In this document: one piece after another, positions 9,801 to 32,531 of the stretch
How positions within the stretch are numbered: position 1 is the stretch's first letter
Layout: each line of letters begins with the position of its first letter
Source: a bacterium
GTDB lineage: Bacteria; Margulisbacteria; Marinamargulisbacteria; SXXA01
Direction of reading: 5' to 3'
NCBI GenBank assembly: GCA_947502965.1
Contig: CANNCG010000003.1
Span: 1 to 32,531, forward strand
DNA: 32,531 bases
Made by a program: the position numbers and the translations under genes
Notes under the pieces: model-generated
What the model saw: only the letters and a program-made list of their open reading frames with translations
Told to the model about the DNA's origin: nothing
Databases searched by the model: none

Positions 9801-12800
9801 ACAGCGCCACATACGTACCGATCAACGGCTTGGCCACATTGTTGTCTCCTACCTCCACATCAATAATCTGAAAGGAAAAATCTGACGAAGGCAGCGACTG
9901 AAATTGTTTCTGCAACATCCATTGCGCCGTAGGATTTGAAATACCCATTCCCACATAGCCATTGGTACCGATGGTGAGGGTACCGCCAGCGGACAACGTC
10001 TCTGCGCGCATCGGCGCAACCATCCCGATAGACTGTATATCCCCCTTAATATCCAAGGCCGTTTTAGGCGTTTCAGTTCCAATCCCAACGCGCCCTGGCG
10101 CATTGATATAGATCGCGTTTAAAACGTTAATCGTGCTAATCTTCAGTCCCTCTGAAATATTAAACGCCTGCGCCCGCAAGGTCCCATAAACTTCCAATAA
10201 GTTCCCAGAAACACCCAATTGCGCATTCGGAGTCCCCCCTATTCCAATATCTCCCCCCATAAAAATAGCCGGGTAACGATACCCAGGGTCCGTAAATTGC
10301 TGTAACGTCACATCGCTCACATCTACATGAAGACCCACCGCCCTGGCTTTACTGGAAAAATAGGTAGGACTATTCTTATAGGGCAGATTTTTCATGTGGA
10401 TATTTAACCCTGCGATTTCCATAGGCGGCGTAACGCCCTGCCAATCAGAGGGATTTGCAGGCCACGTTTGTATTAAAACATTGAGACTTGCCGCATCATG
10501 GCTACGCGAATTGGCCAACACCCCATCATGCGAGACCACACTCTGAACACGCACCATAGTACTGAGCTCACCAGCCCCAAAAGAAATATTATTGCTCGCT
10601 GAAAAGGAATCCGAATAACGACTATATTTCTCGACTTCTGTATTGGCGGTAACCCGCAAGATACCCGCCGCTGTCGGTGTCGCAGAGACCCAATACATAT
10701 TGGTCGGTGCAAAAATTGAGAAAGAAGGCACCCCGGCATCTACACGCCACATCCCCACGTAGCCCCCAGGACCCTCCCCAAGGGTAAACACCTTGGAGAT
10801 ATTGATCACACTGTCAGTGGTATCCAAAACCAATTCTTTATTGAAAACCATCAATTCCCCTATGCTGCCAGCCTGAATATCACTCAAATTTAGCTGCTGC
10901 GCATAATAATCCCCCTCAACAATAAAATTATCCATCACAATCGCTGGGGCATTGGCACTCGCAACAATATTGAGCGTCCCTATAATATCCAAGGAATATT
11001 GGGGTTGTGTTGTCCCTATACCCACATAGCTATACAAGGGGGGTATGGCTTGGGGATCAAAAATCGTGTCATAAAAAACATCGGTGGTGCGATTGTCTCG
11101 GTTGATGGGAATCCAATCAACGAGTTGATTGTCCACCAAAAATTTATTGGCATTAACCGAAGTAACCGCCACATGGGTCGTTGCTCCCAAATTTGCCGTG
11201 CCTATTTGCAATCGCCCCATGAGGGCATTCCCTCCCACACTCAATGCCGCTGTCAGGGGTCGGGTAATGGCAATACCAACACGGTTATTCAACACCGCAA
11301 AAGGAGACCCCTCCCCTATGGAAGCACTCCCACCCGGACCTATGCGAAAAACATCGGTCTGCGTACGCGAAACGCCAAAGGTGTAGCGATCGGTTCCATC
11401 CAGATCAAAGGTAATCACGGGACTGACGGAAGTCCCTACCAAGCTCTGCAAACTACTGCGATTGGAGATTTCTAGCAAACTGTTGGGAGAGCTGGTTCCA
11501 ATCCCGACATTGCCCACCGCAGCAATACGTCCATAAGCATTCACATTGGCCGAAGGGAAATAAATATTGGGCGTCGTATTGATATAAGACCATACCAAAA
11601 CAGAGGTACTGGCCGACAATTGTTGGCCATCGGGAAAGATAAAGGCCTCTGCAGAAATGGACCCTACAGAGTCCAAATAGCCATACGCAGGATCTGCAGA
11701 AGACACCACTGCCTGGCCATTGACAAGCAAATCAGGAAACTTACCAACGCCCACATTGCCAGAGGCCGAAACGACAAATGACGGCGACGACACAGGGTTT
11801 TCTGTTCCTACCGTGAGAAACAACGGAGCACCCAGAGAAGCACCATGAACAACAAACTGAGCATTGCCAGGCGCATTAAGCTGAAGGGTGTCCATCACCA
11901 CCAAGGCATTGCCCGTTGGCGTCGTGGTCTTGATCCCCAGCCCACCATGTTGCGTATACACCAACGCCTGAGCGGTCCCGCCCACCATATTCAGCACCAA
12001 GTTTTGGTTATGCAATGCCAATATCGCCCGAATCTGAGGCTCAAGATGGGCATAGGCAAACCCAGGAGGCAGCGACAAAACGGCATCATGGTTGAACGCC
12101 CCTGCCATTTCACCTGAAGGAAGAAGGTGACCCTGCGCTTTCAGTCCATCCACAATGGCCGCCGCCGAGGCCCAATCGCTGGGATCTGTTAAGATCTCCA
12201 AAAAGTGAACGGCACCCACAGGTTTTGGATATACGGTTAGCGCCACATTTTTGGTGGCAAGCTGGATAGACAACCCTGTTACACGCGTATTGATACCAAC
12301 ACCCCCGGAAGCCCGAATCAAAAATTGGTTTTGGGTAGCCGCCGCAAAGGCCCCACTGGCCGCATCTGCCCAAACAAAAGACCCATGATTATTGGCCGCA
12401 GCACCACGCCCCATCGCCACAGAAAAATCGCCGTAAGCCGCGTTTCCCTGCCCCCCCAAAACCGTGGCATAGGCCCCACCGAGGCTATGACTCGCCCCAC
12501 CAATGGCATGCGAAAAGTTGCCACTCACCAGATGATCATACCCAAAGGCCGTGGTCACAATCCCCAAATTGGCATCATCCCACTGGGTACCCTGATAGGT
12601 ATCCGTGCCACTCAAATACCCCACACGGAAAATGCCTTTGGCCGGATGATAGACCATACGGGTCCCAGCCCCTGTCGCCGATACGGTTGCCGTGATCGGG
12701 CTAATGCCTGGGTTAACCGCCTCAAATCTCCCCGTTAAAAGCAACCCCAAGTTACCACTGACATGCAAATTGGCCTGAGGATTGGCCAAGCCCACGCCAA

Positions 12801-14514
12801 ACCTGTCCTCTAAGGCAACAAAAAGGGGTGTATCACCTCCCAAAGAGGTCCCTTTTTCAACACGAAATACGCCATCTTGTTGCGCATTAACCCCCATGGT
12901 GTAGCGCTGTTGCGAAGTCGTATTATGCCCCGCTGTAAAGGTGATCGCTGGATTTTTTGTCGGCTCCGCGTCAAAACGGTTGGGGGCGGCAATCTCCAGA
13001 AGCGAGGTGGGGTCAGGACGACCTATCCCCACGTTGCCTTGCATGTAATACAAGCTGTTCTTACTATTACGCAGCCAGTACGTACTCTTCGAAAGGGTTA
13101 ACCGCAAAGGCACCCCGTTGATCAATAAATCTTGGGCATTCAGGGTTCCCATGACTTCCACTCTGTGGCCAGAAAGGGTGGTCCCAATCCCCAAGCTCCC
13201 GGTTGCAGAGATCTGCAACAGCGGAATATTTGCCGACGACGATGCCAAAAAAACAGGGCCGGTATCCCCCGATTTTCCAGCGACCTGCAAACGCGCAACA
13301 GGCGTCACACCCACCCCCAAACCAATCCCAGAATTGTGAATCAAGTCTGCCACAGAACCCATACTTGGCGGAGAAACAGGGCCAGCCCATCGGGCCACCC
13401 GATCCGCACGACCAGTGCCCAAAATCCCGGTCAAAGAACGCCATTCCTCCGTCCCAAACCCCGTGCTTAAATATCCCTGAAAATCTGAAAATGTGCCGAC
13501 AGAAGCCCAGCGAATCGTGCCGGTATTTCCCGAAGAGTTGGTATCCAGGCGAAGCCCCCCATTCACGTCCAGCTTTTCCTGCGGTGTGGCACGACCAATG
13601 CCCACCTGATGAGACAGAATATAGAGATTATAGGTAGGCTCTGTGGTCTTGACCCAAAAGTTTGATGCTGTAAGTGGATTGCCATTGCGGGTCAAATGGG
13701 TTGCATTCACAGTCGCTGCCACGTGAAGTGAAAAGCCCGTACTCGGAAACGCCGTCCGGATCCCCACCGGAAATTTGGTGGTATAAATATTGGCGGTAGT
13801 GACCGTACTCCTCAGCCAAGACATGCTATGGGAAAGTGGACGCCCATTCAAATACATATCTGTAAAATTTGCTATCCCCGCCACATCGACGGTATACCCA
13901 GGCGAAAACGTGCCTAACCCCAAACGCGCGCCACGCACCACCAACTTATTTTGCGTCACAACCAGCCCTGTTTGCACAGAAAATGTAGAGACGAAATTCC
14001 CAGACACGTCGGATGCCAAACCTGCTAAGCCCCGTTCCGCGATCCGCGCGTGCACCGCATAAGGCAGCGCTGTCATCGCAAAGGTCGCCGTTTGAGAAGG
14101 CAAAACCAACTGTAAAATGAGATTGGGAGACCGCAAGTTCGTGGGCATCAAAAGCCCGTTTTTCCCCAAAACAAAGGAAAACCCATTCTGTTTAAAAGAC
14201 AGATTACCCAAGCCCTCGGTATACACCACCGTTCCATTCGAAACCAAATTTACAGTGGCAGCAAAGACTTCTGTCCCATTTTGTCCCAAATAACGTCCCA
14301 ATGAAGACGAAAAAAACACATCTCGGACCGTAAACTGTACAGGGTTAGGGCGCCAAGCCTGCACCACCACAGAGGGACTCGTCGCGGTATCGATCACAAA
14401 AATAGAGGTATCAAATGATTGGGCAGGAACCACACCCGCCCCAAAGACACAGAAAACGGCACTGAAAAACAGCTTGGCGCAAAAGGCTGAGTTTAAATAC
14501 CGCTTGTTATCCAT
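847..14514 (-). CDS. Giant secreted repetitive fiber/adhesin-like protein (4555 aa): signal peptide, tail-fibre-like beta-helix repeats, distinct C-terminal domain ending in a predicted coiled coil
   Basis: Single uninterrupted 13.7-kb ORF; ATG at 14514 preceded by AAAGGA 7 nt upstream. N-terminus MDNKRYLNSAFCAKLFFSAVFCVFGAGVVPAQS looks like a signal peptide. More than 20 degenerate copies of (F/L)(M/L)GG-N-V-G-I-G-T-x-x-P-x-x-x-L-x-V (e.g. GNVGIGTTSPAAGLHV, GNVGIGTTAPATALAV, RVGIGTETPKTALDI). One segment, SHAIGGASHSLGG...GSFVWADAASGAFAAATQNQFLIRASGGVGINT, resembles phage tail-fibre / phi29 gp12-type repeats (from memory, not searched). Composition is T/S/G/V/A/N-rich with few charged residues. 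The C-terminal ~150 aa (ADYAEYLPKISAENLRPGDVV ... ELSVLETYLQTKYEERQAKIAVLRKR) ends in heptad-like sequence. Confidence 0.85.
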   Translation of the reverse strand: MDNKRYLNSAFCAKLFFSAVFCVFGAGVVPAQSFDTSIFVIDTATSPSVVVQAWRPNPVQFTVRDVFFSSSLGRYLGQNGTEVFAATVNLVSNGTVVYTEGLGNLSFKQNGFSFVLGKNGLLMPTNLRSPNLILQLVLPSQTATFAMTALPYAVHARIAERGLAGLASDVSGNFVSTFSVQTGLVVTQNKLVVRGARLGLGTFSPGYTVDVAGIANFTDMYLNGRPLSHSMSWLRSTVTTANIYTTKFPVGIRTAFPSTGFSLHVAATVNATHLTRNGNPLTASNFWVKTTEPTYNLYILSHQVGIGRATPQEKLDVNGGLRLDTNSSGNTGTIRWASVGTFSDFQGYLSTGFGTEEWRSLTGILGTGRADRVARWAGPVSPPSMGSVADLIHNSGIGLGVGVTPVARLQVAGKSGDTGPVFLASSSANIPLLQISATGSLGIGTTLSGHRVEVMGTLNAQDLLINGVPLRLTLSKSTYWLRNSKNSLYYMQGNVGIGRPDPTSLLEIAAPNRFDAEPTKNPAITFTAGHNTTSQQRYTMGVNAQQDGVFRVEKGTSLGGDTPLFVALEDRFGVGLANPQANLHVSGNLGLLLTGRFEAVNPGISPITATVSATGAGTRMVYHPAKGIFRVGYLSGTDTYQGTQWDDANLGIVTTAFGYDHLVSGNFSHAIGGASHSLGGAYATVLGGQGNAAYGDFSVAMGRGAAANNHGSFVWADAASGAFAAATQNQFLIRASGGVGINTRVTGLSIQLATKNVALTVYPKPVGAVHFLEILTDPSDWASAAAIVDGLKAQGHLLPSGEMAGAFNHDAVLSLPPGFAYAHLEPQIRAILALHNQNLVLNMVGGTAQALVYTQHGGLGIKTTTPTGNALVVMDTLQLNAPGNAQFVVHGASLGAPLFLTVGTENPVSSPSFVVSASGNVGVGKFPDLLVNGQAVVSSADPAYGYLDSVGSISAEAFIFPDGQQLSASTSVLVWSYINTTPNIYFPSANVNAYGRIAAVGNVGIGTSSPNSLLEISNRSSLQSLVGTSVSPVITFDLDGTDRYTFGVSRTQTDVFRIGPGGSASIGEGSPFAVLNNRVGIAITRPLTAALSVGGNALMGRLQIGTANLGATTHVAVTSVNANKFLVDNQLVDWIPINRDNRTTDVFYDTIFDPQAIPPLYSYVGIGTTQPQYSLDIIGTLNIVASANAPAIVMDNFIVEGDYYAQQLNLSDIQAGSIGELMVFNKELVLDTTDSVINISKVFTLGEGPGGYVGMWRVDAGVPSFSIFAPTNMYWVSATPTAAGILRVTANTEVEKYSRYSDSFSASNNISFGAGELSTMVRVQSVVSHDGVLANSRSHDAASLNVLIQTWPANPSDWQGVTPPMEIAGLNIHMKNLPYKNSPTYFSSKARAVGLHVDVSDVTLQQFTDPGYRYPAIFMGGDIGIGGTPNAQLGVSGNLLEVYGTLRAQAFNISEGLKISTINVLNAIYINAPGRVGIGTETPKTALDIKGDIQSIGMVAPMRAETLSAGGTLTIGTNGYVGMGISNPTAQWMLQKQFQSLPSSDFSFQIIDVEVGDNNVAKPLIGTYVALSSNSGNNYTNQLGDKDGIKRVVGTGYKVDLSGLNVPTGGVVVGLSATASSNRDTSRRVAVFMGGNVGIGTTTPAYPLEVAGTIYATNAPAASFLTEQEVASFSMLNVANNVKVTQGGHFQDLYVTTLRQDNLRLQGTLSIPEQSLVVGDRLFAQSFVSVNAMATLNAVTVVSTAGLQSVSVNKMAVGGVLSSEALRVYGTFTASSLNSTAGEIKVARLGVNDQTFVITEASRAGFGTASPASSVHMKTESYRLTNTDAVAVASDYRTWNPLILQASVATPGHAVGLVLLSNFDESGPSGAGVLGVKTFASGTDAASALAFVTDPEGGEAYPQERLRITDAGWVGIGTTLPTASLHVKGSVFSTAMTLPTASMFVNAMAGTNVTFSITTNVTSLLVLDRLRTPYLRIFPSGVTSISSDNGNLFVDSITKELFYEVKKNGFSVQGNLSVTSSVLPETVPYFKGNGSMAGVSFIKWATENTVGVLRITTSNEVTYSEGSRFAVIGLVSLNITEGKALQSIRLGFKDRSTPGSARFFGMDLALAGISYVHDRFVGLSVTVSDNLRTKTTLSNGTVVTGSAFAAAFLVGTESSGNVGVISGSDSDMVPSASLHIVAGRTHTPLWVQKKVDSVWLDALFVSSNAFVGMGTASPNSQLSVAATTDRAAMTLFSAAGASVLSVNNTGVGIGTSQPGQALSVVGTLSAPMTSFGGLQSSSLSVNTDNSGLLVSSLGEVMLGTTTPLGQFTMVRQFTTSAAMPLHFPMQDIRQTLNSTRTHNLTGIEVVVSTDASAIFEGSAGSKLARGMVLDLKDIVAITGNPVMGVYVDMGISKTAGAGRYAATFLGGNVGMGVSQPNVALDINGSIRANSLIASGGEWTLSAITTNAFFGGDARITTFNINNRNPMSLEVLSTLEIDGNTTVNIQSVQDANQFDAKVLHSVLGTANVVFVGAHSGFADNTVLGVSGSGLLGSLTVPTVTISSAITGETLTVNSPLVISANRVTHTGAIGMTYLQMAPVATQNPSAYTPYTTLFVSSQNAFADQALIFRNPNTGVMANVSSAILGVANRVAGYNENRRVSDQPFMTYTVRESSLGVTYSVLRVGTANATIASGNGVLGLYTGYGVTTGLGDVRAARISTGMGPRITPSSAVFTGVGVGLVGNGTPLGMAPGEVAGGVYVDMQSLRATMTLPNGDAVVGTKIAAIFRSGLQTSGNVGIHTGEDLGTSFLPGANLHVVSALTNPLWIQTASRTAMGSDGLGYLSVGEPIPSAKLSVKGYSDADAFALMAGTTQVMTGGDLGVAIGQLPNAAAWSVAGTASANQAGLGELVSGALQLGTSVAITSAGHLGIGSLLPDHALTIAKNIALPEQLTQNYTQRVVSMNLGKNGSISSVFVPFIGYEMSFAADGILGQFGTGVTPVEAVGLWVDLGDLQLGSNGVAYGIAVTMGHDAISTSRNPLVLLGGNVGIGTTAPATALAVSGVITGKDAVINTVSVNATSATFNRLVLPLGQSATLNTMTIIASGVDLEVLDTLRFDNTSGVTLNFQDHVSTQKEWTSEGLIADVATFNTLFIPQKPVGLATSFALWVSQNALFRHDLHIASMNNKYLSVNALMSTDDMFLPTLNIGLTNGLANVLTITTGNLKVGQSVYMTPISSSSVLSNQSLSGLVLLNDVMVADHIVPHYKYTNGEDRRNVPLLRMFHNYGSDRPPTMNMVMYGTDGIIAKNDGMWWEQDTTTGNHVHVVSTMFDQSKYSLGISASLNTTAFASGYSANKVTMGFGPRTGNRSSLFIGTHVVLDGVVTSNETAIGVRVDLSQLESESSTLLPLNEDFAVDGFKASAVFLAENNGDTQGTMGVFTLMDLGTSPTPDATLHVGSTVTANANVGPFLVGVLATPNALIVTVTSNVGLWTASGEAQLEITRLLVHATGDMGLLVRNAAQSPILTALQTGSVGIGSTEAIASLNVVHSASTGHALWIDNPTTSNPFVVTGAGRTGLGNTAPTAMFDMTFDKAKFTFPVDVVWTVSSQIDEGGGRWRYSLLGTYQIGGVSYTYGVIPRTNNTDVTSALKPVGSVWNGSTEIVDFISTNTTQTTGGAGPLRVAAANGVSLVVGQEGKLGIWRRSPTESYMAMAVSGSMTAGDDTTWTNVPKWLDNPPYPVIYPQLHGYAVRQSGDFSFVGHYRESAAVSADGVVMWGKDAGDVLLVKDVNQTELLRFGKTRVGVVSSDPQATLSIGATDISQYPFRVSTLVSPNAMTMDTAGKVGLGTLVPSQDLHVIGDFNISTGNPLTAGFVNSNYMALKSLSLGVLYATPPEFKETLPIHNVVMTLAAYSKDTHVTGLGYRLTSENAYTMAALANPNSQAVKVNGLVVDVTGLAIEEYATNKFGYKAAAVFMGGPMVIGHATVDDVAVISTANIAFQAYGMDRDGRRIATGNILKIKTTSPAGSGREMVLNYLGNEAVHHEVTPLAFTAIQGTDDTASAVMADALIEAGDMVKTTKGAYARSSGNIATANVNVKAILEQAKTKASVVFHVARGGNQDSFLYLMSGHNASTVTTSMVSAVGVGHVGIGFPMGNAHLAAIDRPFVVSGDVQLGVKTTSFFTSPAGWGAKAYFSGGRIYSPDGNSDNTHEYFMGRYNRSNAISELRINIGETSTTSPNPSSKLIVDTYPKKSSFVAANLVNWGEGTSLKTGFTVSVFGYVNPNDTTVLTELPIRAGVGIGTTSPAAGLHVVRRSEAEGGPSMTGIDPRTPFSHTVLIVSKGSSQNMALVNYGTATDANFMTFIHKDTTKVRTLGYKPTVLGSIEMDGFGGVQFASPEADYAEYLPKISAENLRPGDVVGVFNGQVSRATAGARSVRVISSRPIVAGNFPGLEQLNAFGLVAFMGQVPVRVRGVVRAGDYLIASGFQDGTAVAITASLVVNPAQIIGQAWTATDAAGESTVNAIVGMSFANKHIGARLGEVVSLRAEVAGIKTELSVLETYLQTKYEERQAKIAVLRKR

Positions 14515-14523
14515 GCTAATCCT

Positions 14524-15459
14524 TTAAAAGGCGAACCCCATGGACAGGTAATGTTTACCATTAAATTCTGGATGTTCACTTTTTTCCATCGCATAGTCCG
14601 CCGAGATCGAACCCAGTGTCAAGCCGATACCCAAGCTCACACCCCCCTTGACATTTTTCAAAACCAGAAACTCTTTATACCCACCAGACACCGTGATGTA
14701 AGGGAGAAAAGTAGGCGTATAAACAGCAGCAACGCTGTTGATCATTCTTTTGCTTTCCCCTACGATTTTGAACTGCCCCAACAGCTGGACATCCGGCATA
14801 AACAGGTAGCGAATCCCATACACCGTCTGGAGAGATAGGGTTTCGCTTCCCCCATTGGAGTATTTCACCTTGAGACCAGAAGCCACATTGCGCAAGACAA
14901 TAGAAGTCGCAAAGGTAGGGGTATCGTACAGCATCCCCGCGTCAAAATTGACACCGGAGCCTGTGTAGTCGTGAATTTTTGTAAAGTAATAACTCCCACT
15001 AAGACCAAGGTGAAGGTTCTCCGTTTGGGAAAAGCCATAGCTCAACTTCACCACACCATTCATATAGTCAAAATACGCCCCTGTCTCCAGAAAGATCGCG
15101 GTATCCCTATCTGAGGTAATGTCTTGCGTGGTCACCGCGATCCCACGCACCTCCGTCAGCATAATCCCTGCACCAAACACCCCATAGGGTGTCTTAATAG
15201 TTCCCGCCACATTTTTAAATTCAACCTCTTGCATCAGCTGGGAGTAGAAGAAGTTCAGGTGCCGCTCAGACGGAATCCCCACAATCCCTGCGGGATTGTC
15301 GAAGATACTGCTGGACAGCTTGCTAAACCCCTCGATATTGGCCATCCGAATCATCCGCGCCGAAGACCCTACGTTGGTGCCTTGGAAAAATTCCGCCTGC
15401 GCCAAAAGAGGCACGCCCCAAAGACCTATTAAACACAAAAACAGAGCGACGCTTTTCAT
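14524..15459 (-). CDS. Outer-membrane beta-barrel protein, possibly PorP/SprF-family T9SS membrane protein
   Basis: 311 aa with signal peptide (MKSVALFLCLIGLWGVPLLAQA) and C-terminal ...SMGFAF (terminal aromatic residue typical of OM beta-barrels). N-terminal AQAEFF...SSIFDNPAGIVGI resembles the PorP/SprF N-terminal signature (QQDPQFSQY...INPAYAG, from memory). The stop overlaps the SD of the giant gene; the ATG overlaps the upstream stop (ATGA). Confidence 0.5.
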   Translation of the reverse strand: MKSVALFLCLIGLWGVPLLAQAEFFQGTNVGSSARMIRMANIEGFSKLSSSIFDNPAGIVGIPSERHLNFFYSQLMQEVEFKNVAGTIKTPYGVFGAGIMLTEVRGIAVTTQDITSDRDTAIFLETGAYFDYMNGVVKLSYGFSQTENLHLGLSGSYYFTKIHDYTGSGVNFDAGMLYDTPTFATSIVLRNVASGLKVKYSNGGSETLSLQTVYGIRYLFMPDVQLLGQFKIVGESKRMINSVAAVYTPTFLPYITVSGGYKEFLVLKNVKGGVSLGIGLTLGSISADYAMEKSEHPEFNGKHYLSMGFAF

Positions 15460-16118
15460 GGGATCACCGCAACCTTTCCTTTAGCCAACACCTTCCCATC
15501 GTGCATGAGGAGATAGAAATAAACCCCTGCAGACAAAAAATATCCAGAGAACGAGTCCAAATCAAGCTTGAGCTTGTTAAAGCCGACTTTACCGCCGTTT
15601 GTACCCGCTATAAACGTATTTTTAAAAATTCTATTGGCCATCATGTCATACATTTGCAATTCAATATCCATATTCTTTGACAATTGGTACCCAAGCATGG
15701 CCTCGTCCTGCTGACGTGCTGGATTGGGATAAAACAAAGCCTTCCCGATGACCTCGGCTGCAATACTGGCATCTCTTACCGCTTCTTGATCCACCATCAC
15801 CGCCACTTGCGCTGAAGACAGCGGTCCCGTATCCGTTGATTTGTACCCAAAACTTAAGACTTGCAAACTCCCTTTGGTATTCGAAGTATCCCCATTCATA
15901 TTTGTACCGCTATTTGTCGCCTTAAACGCATCGGGAACGTTGGTCCCGAAATGCAAGATCTGGTTCAAAAACATAGACTCCACCTCAAGAATGCTAGTGG
16001 CATAGACAGGCCCCGTCCACACACAGAGTCCCACGCAGCCCACCCACAGCAGGAAGAGCGACTTGGCTGTTGTCACAACACTGCGCCCAAGACGCCTGAT
16101 TCCACGCATTCTAGCCAT
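15456..16118 (-). CDS. Small secreted protein with a type-IX-secretion C-terminal sorting domain (Por_Secre_tail-like)
   Basis: N-terminal signal/TM segment SLFLLWVGCVGLCVWTGPVYA. C-terminal ~85 aa ALFYPNPARQQDEAM...QMYDMMANRIF...LSAGVYFYLLMHDGKVLAKGKVAVIP matches the T9SS type-A CTD pattern (YPNPA ... iydl.G ... aGvYfv ... Kl.k). Two adjacent ATGs at 16121/16118; the second has better spacing from a GAAGGGG SD-like stretch. Confidence 0.6.
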   Translation of the reverse strand: MARMRGIRRLGRSVVTTAKSLFLLWVGCVGLCVWTGPVYATSILEVESMFLNQILHFGTNVPDAFKATNSGTNMNGDTSNTKGSLQVLSFGYKSTDTGPLSSAQVAVMVDQEAVRDASIAAEVIGKALFYPNPARQQDEAMLGYQLSKNMDIELQMYDMMANRIFKNTFIAGTNGGKVGFNKLKLDLDSFSGYFLSAGVYFYLLMHDGKVLAKGKVAVIP

Positions 16119-16197
16119 CATGCCCCTTCATATCGGACGAAAAGAGGCAAAACTTGCATGCGACTATACCCGTTCCAAAATAGAATCGGGATTCTGC

Positions 16198-16233
16198 GAC
16201 TAAGCTACGCAGGGTACCCTGCGTAGCTTAGTC
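16198..16233. promoter_or_regulatory. Perfect 36-bp palindrome (gactaagctacgcagggtaccctgcgtagcttagtc) in the divergent intergenic region; candidate operator or bidirectional regulatory hairpin
   Basis: Exact self-complementarity over 36 bp (17-bp arms around a GTAC centre). Preceded by a small hairpin agaat-cggg-attct (16182..16195). Followed by TTGACA (16248..16253), 18-bp spacer, TACGGT, which would put a transcription start next to the ATG at 16286. Confidence 0.5.
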
Positions 16234-16285: not shown

Positions 16286-16744
16286 ATGACAAAAGCAGGC
16301 GCCAACTTCATCCAGCCACTCAAAAACATTGAGGTCAAAGTCAGTTTTCAAAAAACACGATTCAAGGCTATTTGCCCCACATTTCCAGAATGCAAGGGCT
16401 TTGGAAAGAGTAAAGATGAGGCCATAAAAAAACTCTGCAAATCCATTTCAAAATTCATCAGCCAGGTCGCAGGGAGTTTGATAGAAAACGTCATTCGCGA
16501 GGCCACGAAGCCCACACCCATCCCCGAACCCGCCCAACTAAAACGGTCGTCACGCAACACAAAAAACACCTCAACATCCACGCCGCTTCTGAGCTACCCC
16601 GAAGACCAAATGATGTTTCGGGTCACCCCAGAGCAAGATATTCACACCCTGATGCACAGACTTCAGGGTGGTATGGATGAGGCAATCCCCATCCATTCTG
16701 AGATAGAAGGCTTCTACATGGGGTTTCCGTTGAGCCTCAACTAA
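16286..16744 (+). CDS. HicB-like (UPF0150) domain protein with C-terminal extension
   Basis: 152 aa. N-terminal region FKAICPTFPECKGFGKSKDEAIKKLCKSI matches the HicB/UPF0150 motif (a.vPdlPGc.a.G.T.eEA...ai). No cognate HicA seen. Ends 5 nt before thrS. Confidence 0.45.
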   Translation: MTKAGANFIQPLKNIEVKVSFQKTRFKAICPTFPECKGFGKSKDEAIKKLCKSISKFISQVAGSLIENVIREATKPTPIPEPAQLKRSSRNTKNTSTSTPLLSYPEDQMMFRVTPEQDIHTLMHRLQGGMDEAIPIHSEIEGFYMGFPLSLN

Positions 16745-20209: not shown

Positions 20210-20995
20210 TTATACCGACCATACCCGAACCCTAGACCCGTTTGCAACCATCCGTACATTATCCGCCATGACATCTGCGTCATGCGCCAAATTTTTCTGC
20301 GACAATACGATTCCCAGTAGCGAAATACCCCGTTGCCGCAAGGCCATGACGCTGAGCATCACCTGGTTGATGACGCCCACCCGGTTTTCAGACACCAGCA
20401 ATACCGAAAATCCCGCATCTGCCACCATGTCCAGCAGCATCACCGTCTCGGTATAGGGCACCATGAGCCCACCAGACCCTTCTATGAGCACACGATACCC
20501 AGCGACCTGCAACCGCGCTGTTGCCGCCAAACATGCCCCTATATCGACACACTGGCCTTGACGAGACGCGGCGAGATGGGGGGAGACAGGATCAGGAAAA
20601 TAATACGGCAGCCTATCTGTCAGCAGAGCCTCGGGAAAGACCACCCCAGACAAGCGATCATGCGTGTCTATGTCCGTGGGCGCCGGCCCTGTTTGGACCC
20701 ATTTCTGGGTAATCACGGGCACACCCGTCTCATACAACGCATGGGCCAGGTGCCCGGTGACCCATGTTTTCCCCACGTCGGTATCGGTGCCAACGATGAC
20801 AATAGGGGATTGAATTGGCAGCTTCGCCGCCAATTCAATCCAGATTTTAGGTAAGGGAGAACGACTACGTCGCTCCCCCTTACAACCCCTACTCTTTTTC
20901 GGATCGAAAGGGTGAGCGACATCGTCGTGAGCCCTTTCGACAAAAAAAAGTTCCCCCTCTTTGGAGGGGGTAAGGGGATGGGATAAATCCAGCAT
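20210..20995 (-). CDS. bioD: Dethiobiotin synthetase, with an unusual ~50-aa N-terminal extension containing palindromic element C
   Basis: P-loop IVIVGTDTDVGKTWVTGHLAHAL matches BioD GTDTxVGKT. ATG at 20995 is 1 nt after the bioC stop. The ORF track extends to a GTG at 21271 overlapping bioC, which is probably spurious. The true start could be further downstream (TTG/CTG near 20850), in which case element C would be intergenic. Confidence 0.75.
   Translation of the reverse strand: MLDLSHPLTPSKEGELFFVERAHDDVAHPFDPKKSRGCKGERRSRSPLPKIWIELAAKLPIQSPIVIVGTDTDVGKTWVTGHLAHALYETGVPVITQKWVQTGPAPTDIDTHDRLSGVVFPEALLTDRLPYYFPDPVSPHLAASRQGQCVDIGACLAATARLQVAGYRVLIEGSGGLMVPYTETVMLLDMVADAGFSVLLVSENRVGVINQVMLSVMALRQRGISLLGIVLSQKNLAHDADVMADNVRMVANGSRVRVWSV
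20880..20975. repeat. Palindromic element C (hairpins tcgaaaggg...ccctttcga at 20904..20940 and ccccctc...gaggggg at 20953..20970), at the bioC-bioD junction / bioD 5' end
   Basis: Shares the GATCGAAAGGG-(loop)-CCCTTTCGATC core with elements A and B. Translated in the bioD frame it reads ...FFVERAHDDVAHPFDPKKSRG..., with PFDP in the same frame as PLDP (A) and AFDP (B). Confidence 0.45.
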
Positions 20996-20996
20996 C

Positions 20997-21755
20997 TTAC
21001 CCGCACCTAGCGGTGCAATAGAACACCTGATACGTCGCCACAATCCGACGATAATGCGCCAAATACGCACGCTCCACTTCCCGAAACAATCCTGGGGTCC
21101 AGTACTTGGGGCCCTCCGGGATCCCCCGCGTTCCGGTGTGTTTGATGCTGCGAAGTAGATCCGCCAAACTCTTAAAATCGCGTTGGTAACGACACTGAAG
21201 AACATGAACCGTTTCAAAACAGTCAGACAGACAGGCATGTAGCGCCGCCCCATCCAAAAACTGCGCCGCACTGGTGATCACCGGATGCCCCCAGACCTGG
21301 CGAATCACCGTTGCCAATTCACGATAGGTCTCGGGTCCAAAGCTGGACAGAACCAACGGACCCCCATGTGACAGTTGCGACAACGCATGCGTCAGTGCCG
21401 CTTTGGGAGGGGAAACCCATTGAAAGGTGGCGTTTGAAAATAGCAGATCCGCTGGGGTTTCCAGCTGAAACTGCGCCATCTCACTACACACAAAATGCAT
21501 GCGTGGGCTACCGTACCGCTGTTGTGCAAACATCACCATTTTGGGCGCCACATCCACGCCCACAACCGTTGCCTCTGGATAGCGTTTTCCCAACAAGGCC
21601 GTCATTGCGCCTGTGCCAGAACCCATGTCTACAATGTGCTGGTAGCTTCCCTCTGGAATTTTTTCTACCAGTTGTGCAAAAACACGCTGCTGAATATCAC
21701 TGTATTGGTCATAGTGCGCCGCCGCAGTAGAAAACTGACTGGCCACATCCCTCAT
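20997..21755 (-). CDS. bioC: Malonyl-ACP O-methyltransferase-like class I SAM methyltransferase
   Basis: 252 aa. FSTAAAHYDQYSDIQQ ... IVDMGSGTG ... matches the BioC N-terminus and SAM-binding motif. Adjacent to bioD. Confidence 0.75.
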   Translation of the reverse strand: MRDVASQFSTAAAHYDQYSDIQQRVFAQLVEKIPEGSYQHIVDMGSGTGAMTALLGKRYPEATVVGVDVAPKMVMFAQQRYGSPRMHFVCSEMAQFQLETPADLLFSNATFQWVSPPKAALTHALSQLSHGGPLVLSSFGPETYRELATVIRQVWGHPVITSAAQFLDGAALHACLSDCFETVHVLQCRYQRDFKSLADLLRSIKHTGTRGIPEGPKYWTPGLFREVERAYLAHYRRIVATYQVFYCTARCG

Positions 21756-22810
21756 ACAGGAAACAGTCCCCGACGCTGCACCGCAATGGTCTCAAAATAC
21801 CGCGTTAAGGCCGCCGCATCTCCCGATGTGATCAAGGCCGACAGCGTCCCCATATCGGCGCTCACCGATTGCAAAAATGCCAACACAGCATCGGCGTTGT
21901 CTAGACAGACAGCCGCACCCCATTGCGCAGGCGAGCATGCCACCCGTGTGGTATCCCGAAAGCCACTGCTGATCAGCTGTTTACCCGCATCCACATAGGG
22001 AGACTTGAGCAAGGTGCCTGCCGTCAGGCATGCCATCACATAGGGCCCATGAGAGGCCAAAGCGACGGCCTCATCGTGGTCCTCTGGCGACATGGTGACC
22101 ACCCGGAATTTTAAATTTTTGAGATAGGTTTCAAAGGACTGACGGCGGGGATCGAGGCTGGGCATGAGGACGTAGGTAGCACCGATGAGCATCTGTACTT
22201 CGGAAGCCGCGTAACCGGTGGTTTCTTTGCCGGCCATGGGGTGCCCTCCAATGAAGAGCGCTTTGTGATTTGGCTCCGCCAAATCACAAAGCGTAGAAGC
22301 CCCAAGGGGCTGCGCCCCTTGACCCCCACCGGCTCCGCCAGGAAAGCTTACGGCGCTGCCGGAAATGCCACCGGCTCCGCCGGGGATTCCATTGGCGCCA
22401 CCTGGAATGCTTCCGGCTTTGCCGGAAACGGGATCCAAAGGGCGAAGCCCTTTGGATCTTTTTTCTTTCTGCCTCGGCGAAGCCGAGGCAGAAAGAGCCT
22501 CTACGATGTCACGTTTGACACTTGCCACATCGGTCACGATCGCAGTAGGCGCTAAAATCTCCTGAAGACATTTAACCGTATCAACGATCATCCCTATCGG
22601 CGTCGCCACGAAGACCAACGACATCTTTGCCAAGATACGAATATCCGTACCTGCGGATGACAGCACCCCATCCGCGATAGCCTGCGTGCAGGCACTTTGA
22701 CTGCGAGATACCCCCACGATATGGGTATCGGGAAACACCTCACGAATCAGCTTTGCCAAGGAGCCGCCGATCAGCCCCAACCCCACAATGCCAACCCTTG
22801 GAAAACTCAC
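21752..22810 (-). CDS. tyrA: Prephenate/arogenate dehydrogenase carrying an ~80-aa in-frame low-complexity insertion (palindromic element A)
   Basis: N-terminal Rossmann [17 protein letters not shown], then [10 protein letters not shown] ... [13 protein letters not shown] (HPMAG motif). Between VKRDIVEAL and [11 protein letters not shown], where about 10-15 aa are normally found, lies [77 protein letters not shown]. Confidence 0.8.
22261..22500. repeat. Palindromic element A inside tyrA: four hairpins (22261..22291, 22303..22321, 22432..22458, 22465..22495) plus a degenerate ~45-bp tandem repeat
   Basis: ggatccaaagggc-gaa-gccctttggatc and ctttctgcctcggc-gaa-gccgaggcagaaag are near-perfect hairpins with GAA loops. 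ctttgtgatttgg-ctccg-ccaaatcacaaag has a 13-bp stem. Length is a multiple of 3 and it is in frame with tyrA. Confidence 0.55.
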
Positions 22811-23169
22811 AGCTTTCTTTTGTCCGGCCTCAGCGCCGTCGCCCCTTTGAGATAGACATGCTGGATATCGGATCCCGATTTATCCGTATTCCAATGGATC
22901 AAAATCCTAATACAGTGGGCCAACGCACCAGGCACCGAGATCTCCGCCGCACACATCAAGGGCACATCAGAGAAGCCCATGTCGCGGGCCGCAAACGCCG
23001 GAAATTCTGCATCCAAATCGGGGGTGAGGGTGAAGATAATCGAGGCGATATCTTCGAGCAGAATCCTATTTTCAGTGATCATGGTTGAGAGCAGAAACTT
23101 GGTTTCTTGGACAATGTCCGCTTTGCTATTTTGAGCAACCGTACTGGCGCCCCTCACTCCCCGAACCAT
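22807..23169 (-). CDS. aroH: AroH-class chorismate mutase
   Basis: [11 protein letters not shown] ... [41 protein letters not shown] ... [13 protein letters not shown] is collinear with B. subtilis AroH (MMIRGIRGATTV...FPAKAVRE...CIRVMMTVQTD...HVYLEKVVVLRPD). Start taken at the fourth codon (ATG 23169) by homology. Confidence 0.85.
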
Positions 23170-23843
23170 AGTGCACACTCCTCTATTAATCCTTCTGTTA
23201 CAACGGTTTTGTCATAGGTTTCGCCAGACAGCATGGCGATCGATGTCGCCTCCGTCAACGTCTCAGGAAAGAGATGTTGATTGAGATTCAATCCAATGCC
23301 AATGACCCCAAAGTACGCATCCCCTCGACTGATCTTTTCCACTAAAATACCACAGAGTTTCTTCCCGTTCACCAAGAGATCGTTGGGAAGCTTGATCTCG
23401 GTGTTGATTTGGAATTTTTTGGCTAGCCAGGCTTGGAGTTTGAGGGCTATCCAATAGGGGAGCGCGTCTGGTTTCGCAGCGCCGCTGCGCAACCAGACGT
23501 GGGGATTTTCAACGTTCTGTCGCCCCATGGATCCCATGGGGTCGAAAGCCCGAAGACCTTTCGCTTCTTTTTCTTCCCGGCAAAGCCGGGAAGAAATCGG
23601 CGAGAACGACAAAAACGAAAAATACACTCCCCCTGGAGGAGACACCCATTTTCGATCAAACTGTCCTCGTCCAGCCGTTTGGACATCCGCCGTGATACAC
23701 ATCCCATCGGGAAACACATGCGCTCCCGTGAGGCGACCTAGGTGTTTAGCGAGGTCGCTGGTGGAGGGCAGCGTGTGGTAGTGGAGATGGGGGGGGTTAG
23801 GCACCGCATACGCCCTCAGCTGTCGGTGATGATTGGTCACCAA
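23154..23843 (-). CDS. birA: Biotin-protein ligase (class I BirA, no N-terminal HTH) carrying a ~35-aa in-frame insertion (palindromic element B)
   Basis: [27 protein letters not shown] ... [19 protein letters not shown] matches BirA catalytic motifs (GRGRxGRxWxSPxG ... KWPNDv...KlaGILvE). The start codon at 23843 is TTG (GTG next), so the start is uncertain. Segment [36 protein letters not shown] interrupts the otherwise collinear alignment with E. coli BirA. Confidence 0.75.
23496..23603. repeat. Palindromic element B inside birA: hairpins ccccatgg-atc-ccatgggg, cgaaag...ctttcg, and ttcttcccggc-aaa-gccgggaagaa
   Basis: Aligns codon-by-codon with element A: tct tcc cgg ctt tgc cgg gaa gaa aaa gaa gcg aaa ggt ctt cgg gct ttc gac ccc versus tct gcc tcg gct tcg ccg agg cag aaa gaa aaa aga tcc aaa ggg ctt cgc cct ttg gat ccc. 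Both encode R-x-x-E-K-x-x-K-G-L-R-x-x-D-P. Confidence 0.55.
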
Positions 23844-26348: not shown

Positions 26349-27537
26349 TAGAAATTTGGACTGGGGCAAATCCCCCTCCAAGCGTTTGAAAGTTGGTGAC
26401 CTGACCTTGAAACAATCTGGCACCCACCATGAGCACCACCTCACCATAGACAAAAAACCGCAGATCATATTTAAACATGGCCGGTTGCGCAGTGAGACTG
26501 TCAGTCTCACTTGGCAGGGTCACAGGGACCATGTCTGCCTGAAAATAAGGCTGTACCACATAGGCTTGATCGAGAAGGGTATCGAATTTTTTTCTGGAAA
26601 TAGAACTCCCTTTGTATACGGCCTTGCTTCCGTAGGTATTTTGGGGTTTAAAAAAACAGTGTTTGCGTTGCTGCCACCATGTTTCGGGAGATTCGTCTTG
26701 GATATGGCGAACAGGGGGAATCACCGATTGAATAAGAGCGATAAGGGCGGTATCGCAGCCGTAGCGCTCCAAAAAACTGGTTTGGGACATGGTCACCATC
26801 CGCCCCTTGTCTGCCATCAGGGCGTAGCTACTAGGATGGGGAGAGACGTGTACCTTTGGATCTGAAATCGCACGTGCGAGGACAGTGTTACTGGGCATGC
26901 TGAGGTAAAAATCACAGCAACGGTTGTAAATATTATCAACAGGTTTCCCCAACGCCATCAACTGTTCCCCATCGTAATAGAGGTCTTTCATATCCACGAT
27001 GTCACAGAGATAGCCCCAGGATTGAAAGATAGCTTGATAGCTTTTGAATTCAAACATCGTGCGCTGTTCAAAAACATCTTCATCCACAATGACCACCCGT
27101 TGACCGGGAATCACAGGGCCCCATTCGGCGACAAACATCTGGCGCAAGGGGTCCCAGACGTCGGATGAGGGCACGGGTGTCAGTCCATGGGCGGCGTAGA
27201 GCAACGCAATGGTGGGATAGCCTGCCCCATTGGTATTAATTTCGATGAGGCGTGGACCTTCTGGCGTCATATAAAAATCAAAACAGAGCAAGGCCGAATC
27301 CGCGTTATCCAAGCGCACACCTTCTTGAATGGCGGCTTGGGTGTCTTGCCTGTAGAGGGGATGGTCTGTGACCCGACGAAAGGTACGTATAAATTTCTGG
27401 CACTGCGCGAATGTGGCGGATGAAAGGGGAACCACAGTGTCAGACACAAACAACGGCATCATGGTGGGTTCCTCTGCGAGAAAAGAAAGTGTCGGAAAAT
27501 GGGTTTTGGGGGTGTCTAAAAAGCGACGAAATGTCAT
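26341..27537 (-). CDS. ATP-grasp superfamily protein, apparently circularly permuted, in the ddl position of the fts cluster
   Basis: 398 aa. C-terminal half has ATP-grasp central/C motifs: CFFKPQNTYGSKAVYKG, AYVVQPYFQ, YDLRFFVYGEVVLMVGARLFQGQVTNFQTLGGG. The motif that normally ends the fold (FDFYMTPEGPRLIEINTNGAGY, cf. Ddl/RimK DF...EvN..PG) lies near the N-terminus (residues ~85-110). Confidence 0.5.
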   Translation of the reverse strand: MTFRRFLDTPKTHFPTLSFLAEEPTMMPLFVSDTVVPLSSATFAQCQKFIRTFRRVTDHPLYRQDTQAAIQEGVRLDNADSALLCFDFYMTPEGPRLIEINTNGAGYPTIALLYAAHGLTPVPSSDVWDPLRQMFVAEWGPVIPGQRVVIVDEDVFEQRTMFEFKSYQAIFQSWGYLCDIVDMKDLYYDGEQLMALGKPVDNIYNRCCDFYLSMPSNTVLARAISDPKVHVSPHPSSYALMADKGRMVTMSQTSFLERYGCDTALIALIQSVIPPVRHIQDESPETWWQQRKHCFFKPQNTYGSKAVYKGSSISRKKFDTLLDQAYVVQPYFQADMVPVTLPSETDSLTAQPAMFKYDLRFFVYGEVVLMVGARLFQGQVTNFQTLGGGFAPVQISNG

Positions 27538-32145: not shown

Positions 32146-32384
32146 TCGCGTCCTGTTGGCGCTGTCGCAAAAAAGCCATGTTTAAAACTTTCAAATCGTA
32201 AGCGCTCCAGGAACCCGATACTGCCGTCCCTCGAAAAATAGAGCTACGCTTTAGTAGCGAGTAAAAACTACGGAGACGTCAAATAGAAAAAGAGAGAGAA
32301 ACAGACTGGGAAGCGGAATATATAGGGTGGCAAAAGAGTGGGTTGAGCCAAGTGGCGTATAGTACAAAATCTGGATACAGCCTG

Positions 32385-32531
32385 AGCTTGCCCCCTAACG
32401 GTGGACCAAAGTTCTAAAAAAAAGAGATATAAAATTCGTCGTCGTCGTGGCTGTGGAACTGTGGGAAACTTGCTCTGAAGTTTTCCATATTTCCATAGCC
32501 TGTTCTATCTAATGATCAGCTCCTTTGCAAG
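32385..32531. repeat. Right copy of the 147-bp terminal inverted repeat
   Basis: Exact reverse complement of 1..147. Confidence 0.9.

Follow-up and report, generated by a model that had tools for sequence, protein, structure and literature searches.

How do palindromic repeats come to lie within the reading frames of conserved enzymes, and how do their arms stay perfectly paired there over deep divergence? The question is raised by a 32,531-nt stretch of bacterial DNA (contig CANNCG010000003.1, positions 1 to 32,531, hereafter the window), in which birA, aroH, tyrA, bioC and bioD form one minus-strand operon. A prediction made earlier from the sequence alone had described a family of double-hairpin elements inserted in frame into tyrA, birA and the 5' end of bioD. 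Groups of hairpins, here called nests, are found inside tyrA and birA and at the bioC/bioD junction (Table 1). The picture of a fixed double-hairpin element is not supported, since the conserved, dispersed unit is a short hairpin only (H1), and the second, longer hairpin (H2) varies in sequence from site to site. It is probable, though far from assured, that these are old nests of a selfish hairpin repeat resembling repetitive extragenic palindromic (REP) sequences and Rickettsia palindromic elements (RPEs), which template switching has enlarged and kept perfect and whose translation yields disordered loops.

Perfect hairpins with a stem of at least 8 bp and a loop of 3–5 nt number 12 in the window, against 0–5 in Markov simulations, and in five of them the stem reaches 12 bp or more, a length that appeared in none of 20 simulations; four of these five fall within the birA–bioD operon. 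The core pattern of the H1 type has two matches in the window (20901–20940 and 22431–22458) and none in 100 shuffles. Folded as single-stranded DNA, the tyrA, birA and bioC/bioD junction regions reach z-scores of −10.0, −8.1 and −9.9, respectively, with none of 200 shuffles folding equally well. All hairpins named in the original prediction were recovered at or beside their given positions, and others that it had overlooked were added (20807–20841, which lies outside its start, 20852–20882, 20953–20970, 22259–22293, 22303–22321, 23465–23499 and 23523–23541), together with a 21-nt tandem array at 22326–22428. The fold scores (z of −8 to −10) and the shuffles without the pattern speak against chance low-complexity similarity, and an assembly artefact is rejected because the same nests are present in independent assemblies (NCBI, ENA, JGI and Logan), with divergence that tracks phylogeny. 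Such explanations are favoured only by the tyrA insert's repetitive and G+C-rich appearance, and they retain next to no probability.

The operon was compared at the DNA level among eight members of one clade (the window and loci L002, L003, L208, L004, L126, L209 and L210) and with two outgroups, L005 (TyrA 57% identical; bioC and bioD also present) and L127 (TyrA 50%; the contig ends just after tyrA). The gene order birA-aroH-tyrA is kept in both outgroups, and neither operon holds any H1 or long hairpin. Their empty-site proteins measure 177 and 174 aa for BirA and 290 and 275 aa for TyrA in L005 and L127, respectively. In alignments with solved structures, TyrA residues 108–185 stand for residues 103–107 of 2f1k_A and residues 67–114 of the 216-aa BirA for residues 59–68 of 2eay_A, giving net gains of about 73 and 38 aa, close to the 80 and 35 aa estimated before. 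Since the segments are missing from the outgroup operons and the solved structures, they are insertions and not ancestral, which confirms the earlier view of in-frame palindromic insertions within otherwise collinear enzymes; both reading frames are open through the inserts, as had been noted.

TyrA carries its insert at the same site in 12 of 12 clade proteins (65–100% identity, 320–401 aa; 352–401 aa among relatives of 76–84% identity). Whether unrelated orthologues also carry it was checked, and the segment is absent from TyrA outside the clade, that is, from those sequences aligned or mapped among the best 120 listed (Margulisbacteria, cyanobacteria and PDB chains). Searched against 1.84 billion representative proteins, the insert matched only a TyrA representative and one Gly-rich protein, and a protein search with the concatenated hairpin-encoded peptides gave one candidate and zero matches. 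In the AlphaFold2 model of TyrA, the predicted local distance difference test (pLDDT) score is 85–97 in the core and below 50 at residues 111–180, which have no secondary structure; the insert is thus predicted to be disordered, in line with the loop proposed for it.

On the coding strand, the tyrA nest runs from a left H2 (15 bp) through an H1 (12 bp), an array of 21-nt mini-hairpins and a second H1 (8 bp) to a right H2 (16 bp), the 3' arm of which encodes PNHKA. The 19-mer CAAAGGGCTTCGCCCTTTG of the 12-bp H1 is identical in L003, L208, L126, L209 and L210 and at unrelated loci of L004, L026 and L075. The array encodes a peptide rich in G, A, S and P and has 2.8 copies in the window versus 8.6 in L003. 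The birA nest consists of a left long hairpin (12 bp), two decayed H1 copies, the second with an 8-bp palindrome, and a right H2 (16 bp with one mismatch), whose 3' arm directly precedes LPYWIALKL. The first of these H1 copies (23541–23564) has a perfect orthologue in L126 (GAAAGGGC-TCC-GCCCTTTC), and the counterpart of the second is intact in L004 (TTCAAGGGGC-GGCA-GCCCCTTGAA); the right palindrome is a perfect 16 bp in L004, and in L210 its stem is perfect with a different outer sequence. The birA site measures 99–105 nt when empty and, when filled, 156 nt in L004, 216 in the window, 264 in L126, 294 in L210 and 414 in L209, with the frame always kept and an extra insertion within the H1 loop in L209 and L210. 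The tyrA and birA copies have the peptide R-x-x-[KE]-E-x-x-K-G-L-R-x-x-D-P in common and the bioD copy encodes HPFDP, much as the original prediction had it.

At the bioC/bioD junction, H3 (7 bp, with a T-run behind it) is followed by an H1 whose loop is enlarged, then by an H1-like hairpin with imperfect pairing and finally by a palindrome of 13–16 bp. The copy formerly assigned to bioD is present, but its place is a stretch of 50-odd codons that separates the bioC stop from the conserved BioD core. The stretch is open in frame from an ATG at 20995, with AGGTG 8 nt upstream, and is called as part of a 261-aa BioD, to which its translation would add an N-terminal extension; BioD is 223 aa and overlaps bioC at the empty-site locus L005, and is 224 aa in L208. 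The palindrome lies where the conserved core starts, and its 3' arm encodes PIQSP, with IVIVGTDTD following immediately. Its orthologues are perfect over 16 bp with differing sequences in L208, L004 and L209 but reach only 6 bp in L126, and L005 has none. The H1-like hairpin at 20852–20882 is present in the window, L003, L004 and L209 and absent in L126 and L208. In L208, with a bioC 94% identical to that of the window, there is no H3, no H1-like hairpin and no H1 stem, yet the "RDCVAH" loop of the H1 copy is kept. The loop might therefore be native to the BioD N-terminus, although by parsimony a loss of the stems in L208 is the more likely course.

Among the eight clade operons, those compared in detail have the three nests at the same sites and differ in module content, although bioC nucleotide identity in the clade falls to 73%, and third codon positions are 48% identical, near saturation. 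The nests are therefore old, and a recent local spread within the operon is ruled out; the original prediction had suggested local spread or selection for tolerated sites.

H1 is a G+C-rich unit of 19–31 nt with the consensus GGGATTCAAAGGGC-N3-4-GCCCTTTGAATCCC, extended to (GGGAT)TCAARGGGY-N3-4-RCCCYTTGA(ATCCC), and is flanked by GGGAT/ATCCC or GATC; two variants, AAAGGGC and AAGGGGC, are often paired within a nest. Perfect H1 occurs in 22 copies in 110 kb of clade loci, which were not chosen for H1, and in none in 19 kb of outgroup loci or in 416 kb of unrelated control loci, taken from a metagenome scan with the GHPMAGKE pattern, in which the TyrA relatives listed were at most 40% identical and no orthologous operon was among them. 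The search for further copies, suggested with the original prediction, located H1 in intergenic DNA of relatives and inside HGLS, PdxA, a WecG-family glycosyltransferase and a Methyltransf_9 protein. A scan of species-representative genomes placed the pattern at no fewer than 11 loci in "Bacterium isolate M30B43" (JAGYJO01), which has the HGLS gene and its insertion in common with clade member L004. Furthermore, in a Marinamargulisbacteria metagenome-assembled genome (MAG), repeats encoding H1 lie in frame in DnaX and in an HflX-like GTPase, the latter assigned from motifs in its translation; the phenomenon therefore reaches named Margulisbacteria. Coding copies are read as K/Q-G-x-x-P-L/F or as Q-R-A-E-P-F, the two stop-free frames of three. 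Only two viral contigs matched the H1 pattern, and nothing thus points to phages as its source.

A hairpin close to H1, TTCAAGGGG[CT]-N3-4-[AG]CCCCTTGAA, recurs in multiple copies in unrelated phyla. It occurs in the Chloroflexia MAG CAVZNP01 (L007, L017, L022, L037, L041, L056, L057, L059 and L083), where it sits in a larger conserved repeat, ccggcggggatt-hairpin-ccctcggagag, in the Gammaproteobacteria MAG CAYOJP01 (L008, L016, L055, L062, L090 and L117), and at further loci (L015, L018 and L068; L052, L066 and L069; L048 and L064). The form in proteobacterial MAGs is TTCAAGGGGTCTGACCCCTTGAA. Convergence might account for this likeness, or the hairpin might be a recognition signal that many lineages share.

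The long H2 hairpins have 3-nt loops, often within GC-GAA-GC, and the heptamer d(GCGAAGC) is an unusually stable mini-hairpin. Their origin can be followed at HGLS, where the empty site of L005 reads GATATCCTGTTTCGTGAT|TTTGGTGGC (DILFRD|FGG) and the filled site of L004 consists of native TCCTGTTTCGCAGC (VLFRS), GAA, the exact reverse complement GCTGCGAAACAGGA, AAAGAAT and then H1. The outer arm of this H2 is therefore host coding sequence and the inner arm its inverted duplication. The left flank is duplicated in inverted orientation and a direct target-site duplication is not present, and for this reason a classical MITE (miniature inverted-repeat transposable element) was rejected. At the left tyrA junction, the 5' arm encodes a native-like ALSASA, which is matched at 14 of 18 nt by the homologous codons of L127, GCTGTTTCTGCCCATGCT (AVSAHA), and the 3' arm is the inverted copy, encoding SPRQKE. 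Where the junctions are resolved best, H2 thus has, judging from the alignments, a native outer arm and an inverted copy of it as the inner arm. The inner arm is added sequence at the HGLS, tyrA and birA junction palindromes, in contrast to the bioD palindrome, which spans a coding stretch of native length.

These boundaries bear on the main rival, an ordinary transposase-driven system, in which the whole of H1 plus H2 would be a conventional non-autonomous element, either of the MITE type or of the type formed by REP doublets forming hairpins and REP-associated tyrosine transposases (REPIN-RAYT), mobilised by a transposase encoded elsewhere, and in which stems would be perfect through the youth of copies or through recombination between them. 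The loose T-rich ...GC consensus of the H2 arms would suit such a system, and the AAAGGGC/AAGGGGC pairs within one nest recall REP doublets. The same H1 plus H2 pair is also found at several loci of JAGYJO01 and of a Margulisbacteria single-amplified genome (below). However, the outer arms at HGLS and at the left tyrA junction are host coding sequence conserved in empty-site orthologues, the HGLS boundaries lack the direct duplication, and the nests are old and clade-shared, yet still perfect. In addition, inspection of the JAGYJO01 and clade copies revealed no conserved GTAG/CTAC of the REP-head type beside the H1 stem and no terminal inverted repeats beyond the hairpins, and no transposase domain was seen in the few ORFs scanned near copies, although that search was not systematic. 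A transposase-driven origin is accordingly regarded as unlikely.

The way in which the stems evolve provides a further line of evidence. Orthologous stems of 12–16 bp stay perfect with different sequences. In the bioD, birA-left and tyrA-right hairpins, 5 of 16, 3 of 13 and 4 of 16 pairs have changed on both sides, respectively, and the covariation scores were reached by 0, 6 and 0 of 500 shuffles; the five double-sided changes of bioD were reached by 2 of 500. When partners were slid by 1–3 columns, pairing became much poorer in all three. Such compensatory changes in three orthologous hairpins would also be expected if the hairpins were structures useful to the host, held by purifying selection as messenger RNA stabilisers or processing sites, as pausing or coupling signals in translation, as antisense or partial terminators, or as DNA-binding sites. 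The position of the bioD palindrome within the first codons of the conserved core fits this explanation, as does the terminator-like H3 with its T-run just after bioC; under a simple terminator consensus, H3 fits on the coding strand (20970 to 20953) and the H1 at 22430–22460, with its T-rich tail, on the antisense strand only. Terminator-like sites number 11 in the region, versus 4.2 ± 2.6 in shuffles, and hairpins like H3 lie outside called genes in L004 (2697–2722 and 4936–4957). Nevertheless, most hairpins are found mid-gene and not at cistron boundaries, their modules vary freely or go missing at one site (L208 and L004), the outgroups do without them, and no Rfam family matched anywhere in the window. 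The stems are almost purely Watson–Crick, with G–U in only 5 of 212 cells of the three tested hairpins, and the loops flip to their reverse complement, a DNA-level event. A role for the host as the cause of the hairpins therefore appears quite improbable.

The loop flips comprise two cases, in which orthologous hairpins differ only by a reverse-complemented loop and an amino acid is changed: tyrA-right has GGA in the window versus TCC in L003 and L208, and the HGLS hairpin has GAA in L004 versus TTC in L051. Moreover, a two-nucleotide change between CCTCGG and CCGAGG, synonymous for Pro-Arg, makes or breaks pairing, and its distribution in the clade requires that it has recurred. According to four reports, template switching yields homogenised arms, inverted spacers, enlarged inverted repeats and multi-nucleotide compensatory changes (PMC8604942, PMC13100816, PMC8794818, PMC7202029), and a fifth proposes it for the perfect palindromes found in mitochondrial coding sequence of Nematomorpha (PMC6649704). 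The loop flips and compensated stem changes observed here can be read, at the level of sequence, as signatures of template switching during replication.

In the preferred reading of old, selfish hairpin nests, H1 would be copied to new sites by a trans-acting nuclease or transposase that recognises single-strand hairpins, which by analogy with REPs is the most likely agent. A hairpin in the DNA would then provoke template switching, in which the nascent strand folds back or crosses to the other arm. Such a switch could copy adjacent host codons as their reverse complement, giving rise to long perfect junction palindromes with 3-nt loops, and could also homogenise the arms, so that substitutions would appear as compensated multi-nucleotide changes. 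It would invert loops as well, and would permit both further insertions at hairpin tips and expansion of the array of 21-nt mini-hairpins. Only in-frame, stop-free products would survive, at a surface loop in TyrA and BirA or at the N-terminus in BioD, and the inserts would be read as disordered segments rich in G, A, S, P, K and R, for which a benefit to the host is unnecessary. A more radical and more doubtful possibility is self-propagation without any transposase, whereby the mini-hairpin itself would seed template switching, write the reverse complement of neighbouring codons and grow nests that add up to about 100 new, translated codons to essential enzymes throughout the candidate phylum Margulisbacteria. 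If true, bacteria would have their own equivalent of the coding palindromes of Nematomorpha, and protein segments could be born by a new route.

Several points weigh against the reading of REP- or RPE-like nests shaped by template switching. The covariation is based on 4–5 distinct sequences per hairpin, and it would be equally expected under selection on RNA or DNA structure. The native origin of the outer arm is not demonstrable by comparison at the left and right birA junctions. H1 is accompanied by the same H2 at several loci of JAGYJO01 (the TATTTCGCTCAGC type) and of the Margulisbacteria single-amplified genome AM-311-D06 (the GTTTGAAGTGC type), and some pairs therefore behave as one mobile unit. 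No enzyme or mechanism that spreads H1 was found in the genome fragments, and no search of whole genomes was made. The terminator-like look of H3 with its T-run and of H1 with its T-rich tail may reflect a role at the level of the host or a regulatory side-effect. Finally, that the inserts are translated is something we infer.

Among known systems, the closest in behaviour are the RPEs, as the original prediction had pointed out. In them too, palindromic repeats have entered metabolic and other housekeeping genes that are unrelated to one another, in frame and each adding a peptide at a position compatible with the fold (PMC10969869); they are also found in intergenic DNA and, like H1, carry no transposase. 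Membership of the RPE family is not supported. RPE-1 to RPE-10 form ten families with a unit of about 100–150 bp, according to a summary of Ogata et al. 2000 (PMC10969869), versus 19–31 nt for H1. The arms are kept perfect here over deep divergence, whereas RPEs decay, losing repeat identity with time according to PMC6649704. The nests are modular, still growing at one site and partly made of inverted host codons, and beyond H1 their content differs by site and lineage. Their host also stands outside Rickettsia and the Rickettsiales: the best named relatives of its threonyl-tRNA synthetase, at 64–67% identity, belong to Candidatus Margulisbacteria and Marinamargulisbacteria, and TyrA is nearest, outside its own clade and among the best 120 matches listed, to Margulisbacteria, Saganbacteria and cyanobacteria. 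The host is a free-living, uncultured Margulisbacteria-like lineage related to cyanobacteria, and an RPE acquired by it or shared by descent is very improbable.

REPs are extragenic by definition, have a conserved GTAG-type head and are mobilised by RAYT (HUH Y1) transposases. Together with bacterial interspersed mosaic elements and REPINs, they share with H1 the form of short G+C-rich palindromes (20–40 nt) present in many copies, in clusters or doublets and in both orientations (REPs are mentioned in PMC3184786). Unlike them, H1 has copies inside the TyrA, BirA, HGLS, PdxA, WecG-family, Methyltransf_9, DnaX and HflX-like genes, and no RAYT has been identified, although no genome-wide search was made. 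With regard to the terminal inverted repeats of MITEs, H1 often lies close to both ends of a nest; it is, however, a palindrome in its own right, and there is no known parent insertion sequence. The double-hairpin elements of Allomyces are mitochondrial and comparable small mobile repeats, and we know of no report of inverted target duplication for the mitochondrial hairpin repeats. The hairpin-forming elements of sponges (PMC2800124) and the GC clusters of yeast (PMC4478555) are likewise small, transposase-free mobile hairpins, intergenic and sometimes genic; they are organellar, however, and differ in sequence. The coding palindromes of Nematomorpha (PMC6649704) are likewise perfect inverted repeats in coding sequence, with gains and losses between relatives and an all-or-nothing perfection that suggests active conversion of the arms. 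The bioD palindrome resembles them further in occupying coding sequence of native length. Theirs are mitochondrial, reach 284 bp and bear conserved protein on both arms with no added length, whereas here most measure 12–18 bp, flank a dispersed H1 and belong to net insertions. Finally, the template-switch quasipalindromes of E. coli and yeast show the same homogenised arms, compensatory multi-nucleotide changes, spacer inversion and enlargement; in the reports (PMC7202029, PMC8604942, PMC8794818, PMC13100816) they are isolated events in ordinary genes, whereas here they appear concentrated on repeat-seeded nests of up to about 100 codons.

The open-access literature held nothing relevant on such elements in Margulisbacteria or on M30B43. 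To our knowledge, the RPEs of Rickettsia are essentially the sole textbook example of in-frame palindromic selfish DNA, and the nests would offer a comparable but mechanistically distinct case outside Rickettsia, in a free-living, uncultured lineage related to cyanobacteria. Their unusual hallmark is junction palindromes made from host codons and kept perfect by apparent template switching. If this reading is true, they provide natural material for the creation and maintenance of hairpins in coding DNA, show the birth and expansion of new disordered protein segments, and bear on the persistence of repeats in genes, where the reading frame constrains deletion. They would also be a practical warning for the annotation and phylogenomics of Margulisbacteria, whose proteins may hold long lineage-specific inserts and N-terminal extensions.

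Table 1. Nests, their hairpins, the genes of the operon and two in-frame copies in a relative.
Feature	Position	Strand	Sequence and encoded peptide	Remark
Whole tyrA insertion (TyrA residues 108–185)	22256–22489	minus		PDB alignment, relatives, AlphaFold2 model
tyrA, left H2 junction palindrome	22464–22496	minus	TCTTTCTGCCTCGGC-TTC-GCCGAGGCAGAAAGA	15 bp, perfect
tyrA, H1	22431–22458	minus	GGATCCAAAGGGC-TTC-GCCCTTTGGATC (coding strand); SKGLRPLDP	12 bp, perfect; also given as GGATCCAAAGGGC-GAA-GCCCTTTGGATC
tyrA, 21-nt coding minisatellite	22326–22429	minus	CCGGC-NNN-GCCGG mini-hairpin per unit	repeat family D3
tyrA, H1 variant	22303–22321	minus	CAAGGGGC-GCA-GCCCCTTG; QGAQPLG	
tyrA, right H2 junction palindrome	22259–22293	minus	CGCTTTGTGATTTGGC-GGA-GCCAAATCACAAAGCG	16 bp, perfect
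Whole birA insertion (BirA residues 67–114)	23463–23606	minus		PDB alignment, orthologues
birA, left long hairpin	23570–23596	minus	TTTCTTCCCGGC-TTT-GCCGGGAAGAAA; ISSRLCREE	12 bp, perfect
birA, decayed H1	23541–23564	minus	GCGAAAGGTC-TTC-GGGCTTTCGAC; AKGLRAFD	
birA, decayed second H1	23500–23541	minus	CCCCATGG-GAT-CCATGGGG	8-bp palindrome at 23523–23541
birA, right junction palindrome	23465–23499	minus	CGTCTGGTTGCGCAGC-GGC-GCTGCGAAACCAGACG	one mismatch
Inserted stretch between bioC stop and conserved BioD core	20842–20995	minus		bioC stop at 20997–20999
bioC/bioD, H3	20943–20970	minus	CCCCCTC-CAAA-GAGGGGG then T-run (coding strand)	hairpin at 20953–20970; just downstream of bioC stop
bioC/bioD, H1 with enlarged 19-nt loop	20901–20940	minus	TCGAAAGGG ... 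CCCTTTCGA; ERAHDDVAHPFDP	bioD copy of the original prediction; core also written GGATCGAAAGGG...CCCTTTCGA
bioC/bioD, imperfect H1-like hairpin	20852–20882	minus	TAAGGGGGAGCGAC-GTA-GTCGTTCTCCCTTA (coding strand); CKGERRSRSPLP	
bioC/bioD, H2 junction palindrome	20807–20841	minus	GGATTGAATTGGC(GGC-GAA-GCT)GCCAATTCAATCC (coding strand)	13 bp perfect; 16 bp with one G–T pair
DnaX with tandem in-frame hairpin-peptide block	L098, 4952–6889	minus	GDKVPFEKNLGLKGQ..., VQGAKPLEN	Marinamargulisbacteria MAG
HflX-like GTPase	L085, 205–1638	minus	LRGLAPLEN...VQGAKPLEK	Marinamargulisbacteria MAG
birA	23154–23843	minus		
aroH	22807–23178	minus		type I chorismate mutase
tyrA	21752–22810	minus		
bioC	20997–21755	minus		
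bioD as called	20210–20995	minus		

Elsewhere in the window, positions 1–148 and 32383–32530 are perfectly complementary over 148 nt, AT-rich and non-coding in look; the probable cause is either a dispersed repeat that interrupted the assembly or an artefact of assembly. An ORF at 847–14514 on the minus strand encodes 4555 aa and contains periodic internal DNA repeats (families D1, D2 and D4); its counterpart has no precomputed Pfam annotation in L001 and is called as 2851 aa in L003. A toxin–antitoxin locus beside BolA varies among the near-identical contigs L001, L002 and L003, with the PhdYeFM antitoxin gene alone in the first (2435–2764), the ParE/YoeB toxin gene alone in the second (1978–2238) and both in the third (2337–2839).

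In addition, a perfect 16-bp palindrome, GACTAAGCTACGCAGG-GTAC-CCTGCGTAGCTTAGTC, lies at 16198–16233 in the intergenic region between the divergent ORFs 15456–16121 (minus) and 16286–16744 (plus). Its orthologue in L003 (16729–16758) has a 13-bp stem, the outer part of which differs yet pairs. The palindrome might serve as an operator or be one more that is maintained. Two small perfect hairpins within ORFs, neither of them H1-like, are found at 15281–15299 (ACAATCCC-TGC-GGGATTGT) and 26491–26511 (AGTGAGACT-GTC-AGTCTCACT); both are conserved in L003 (17661–17679 and 6375–6395), where the second differs by one loop base.

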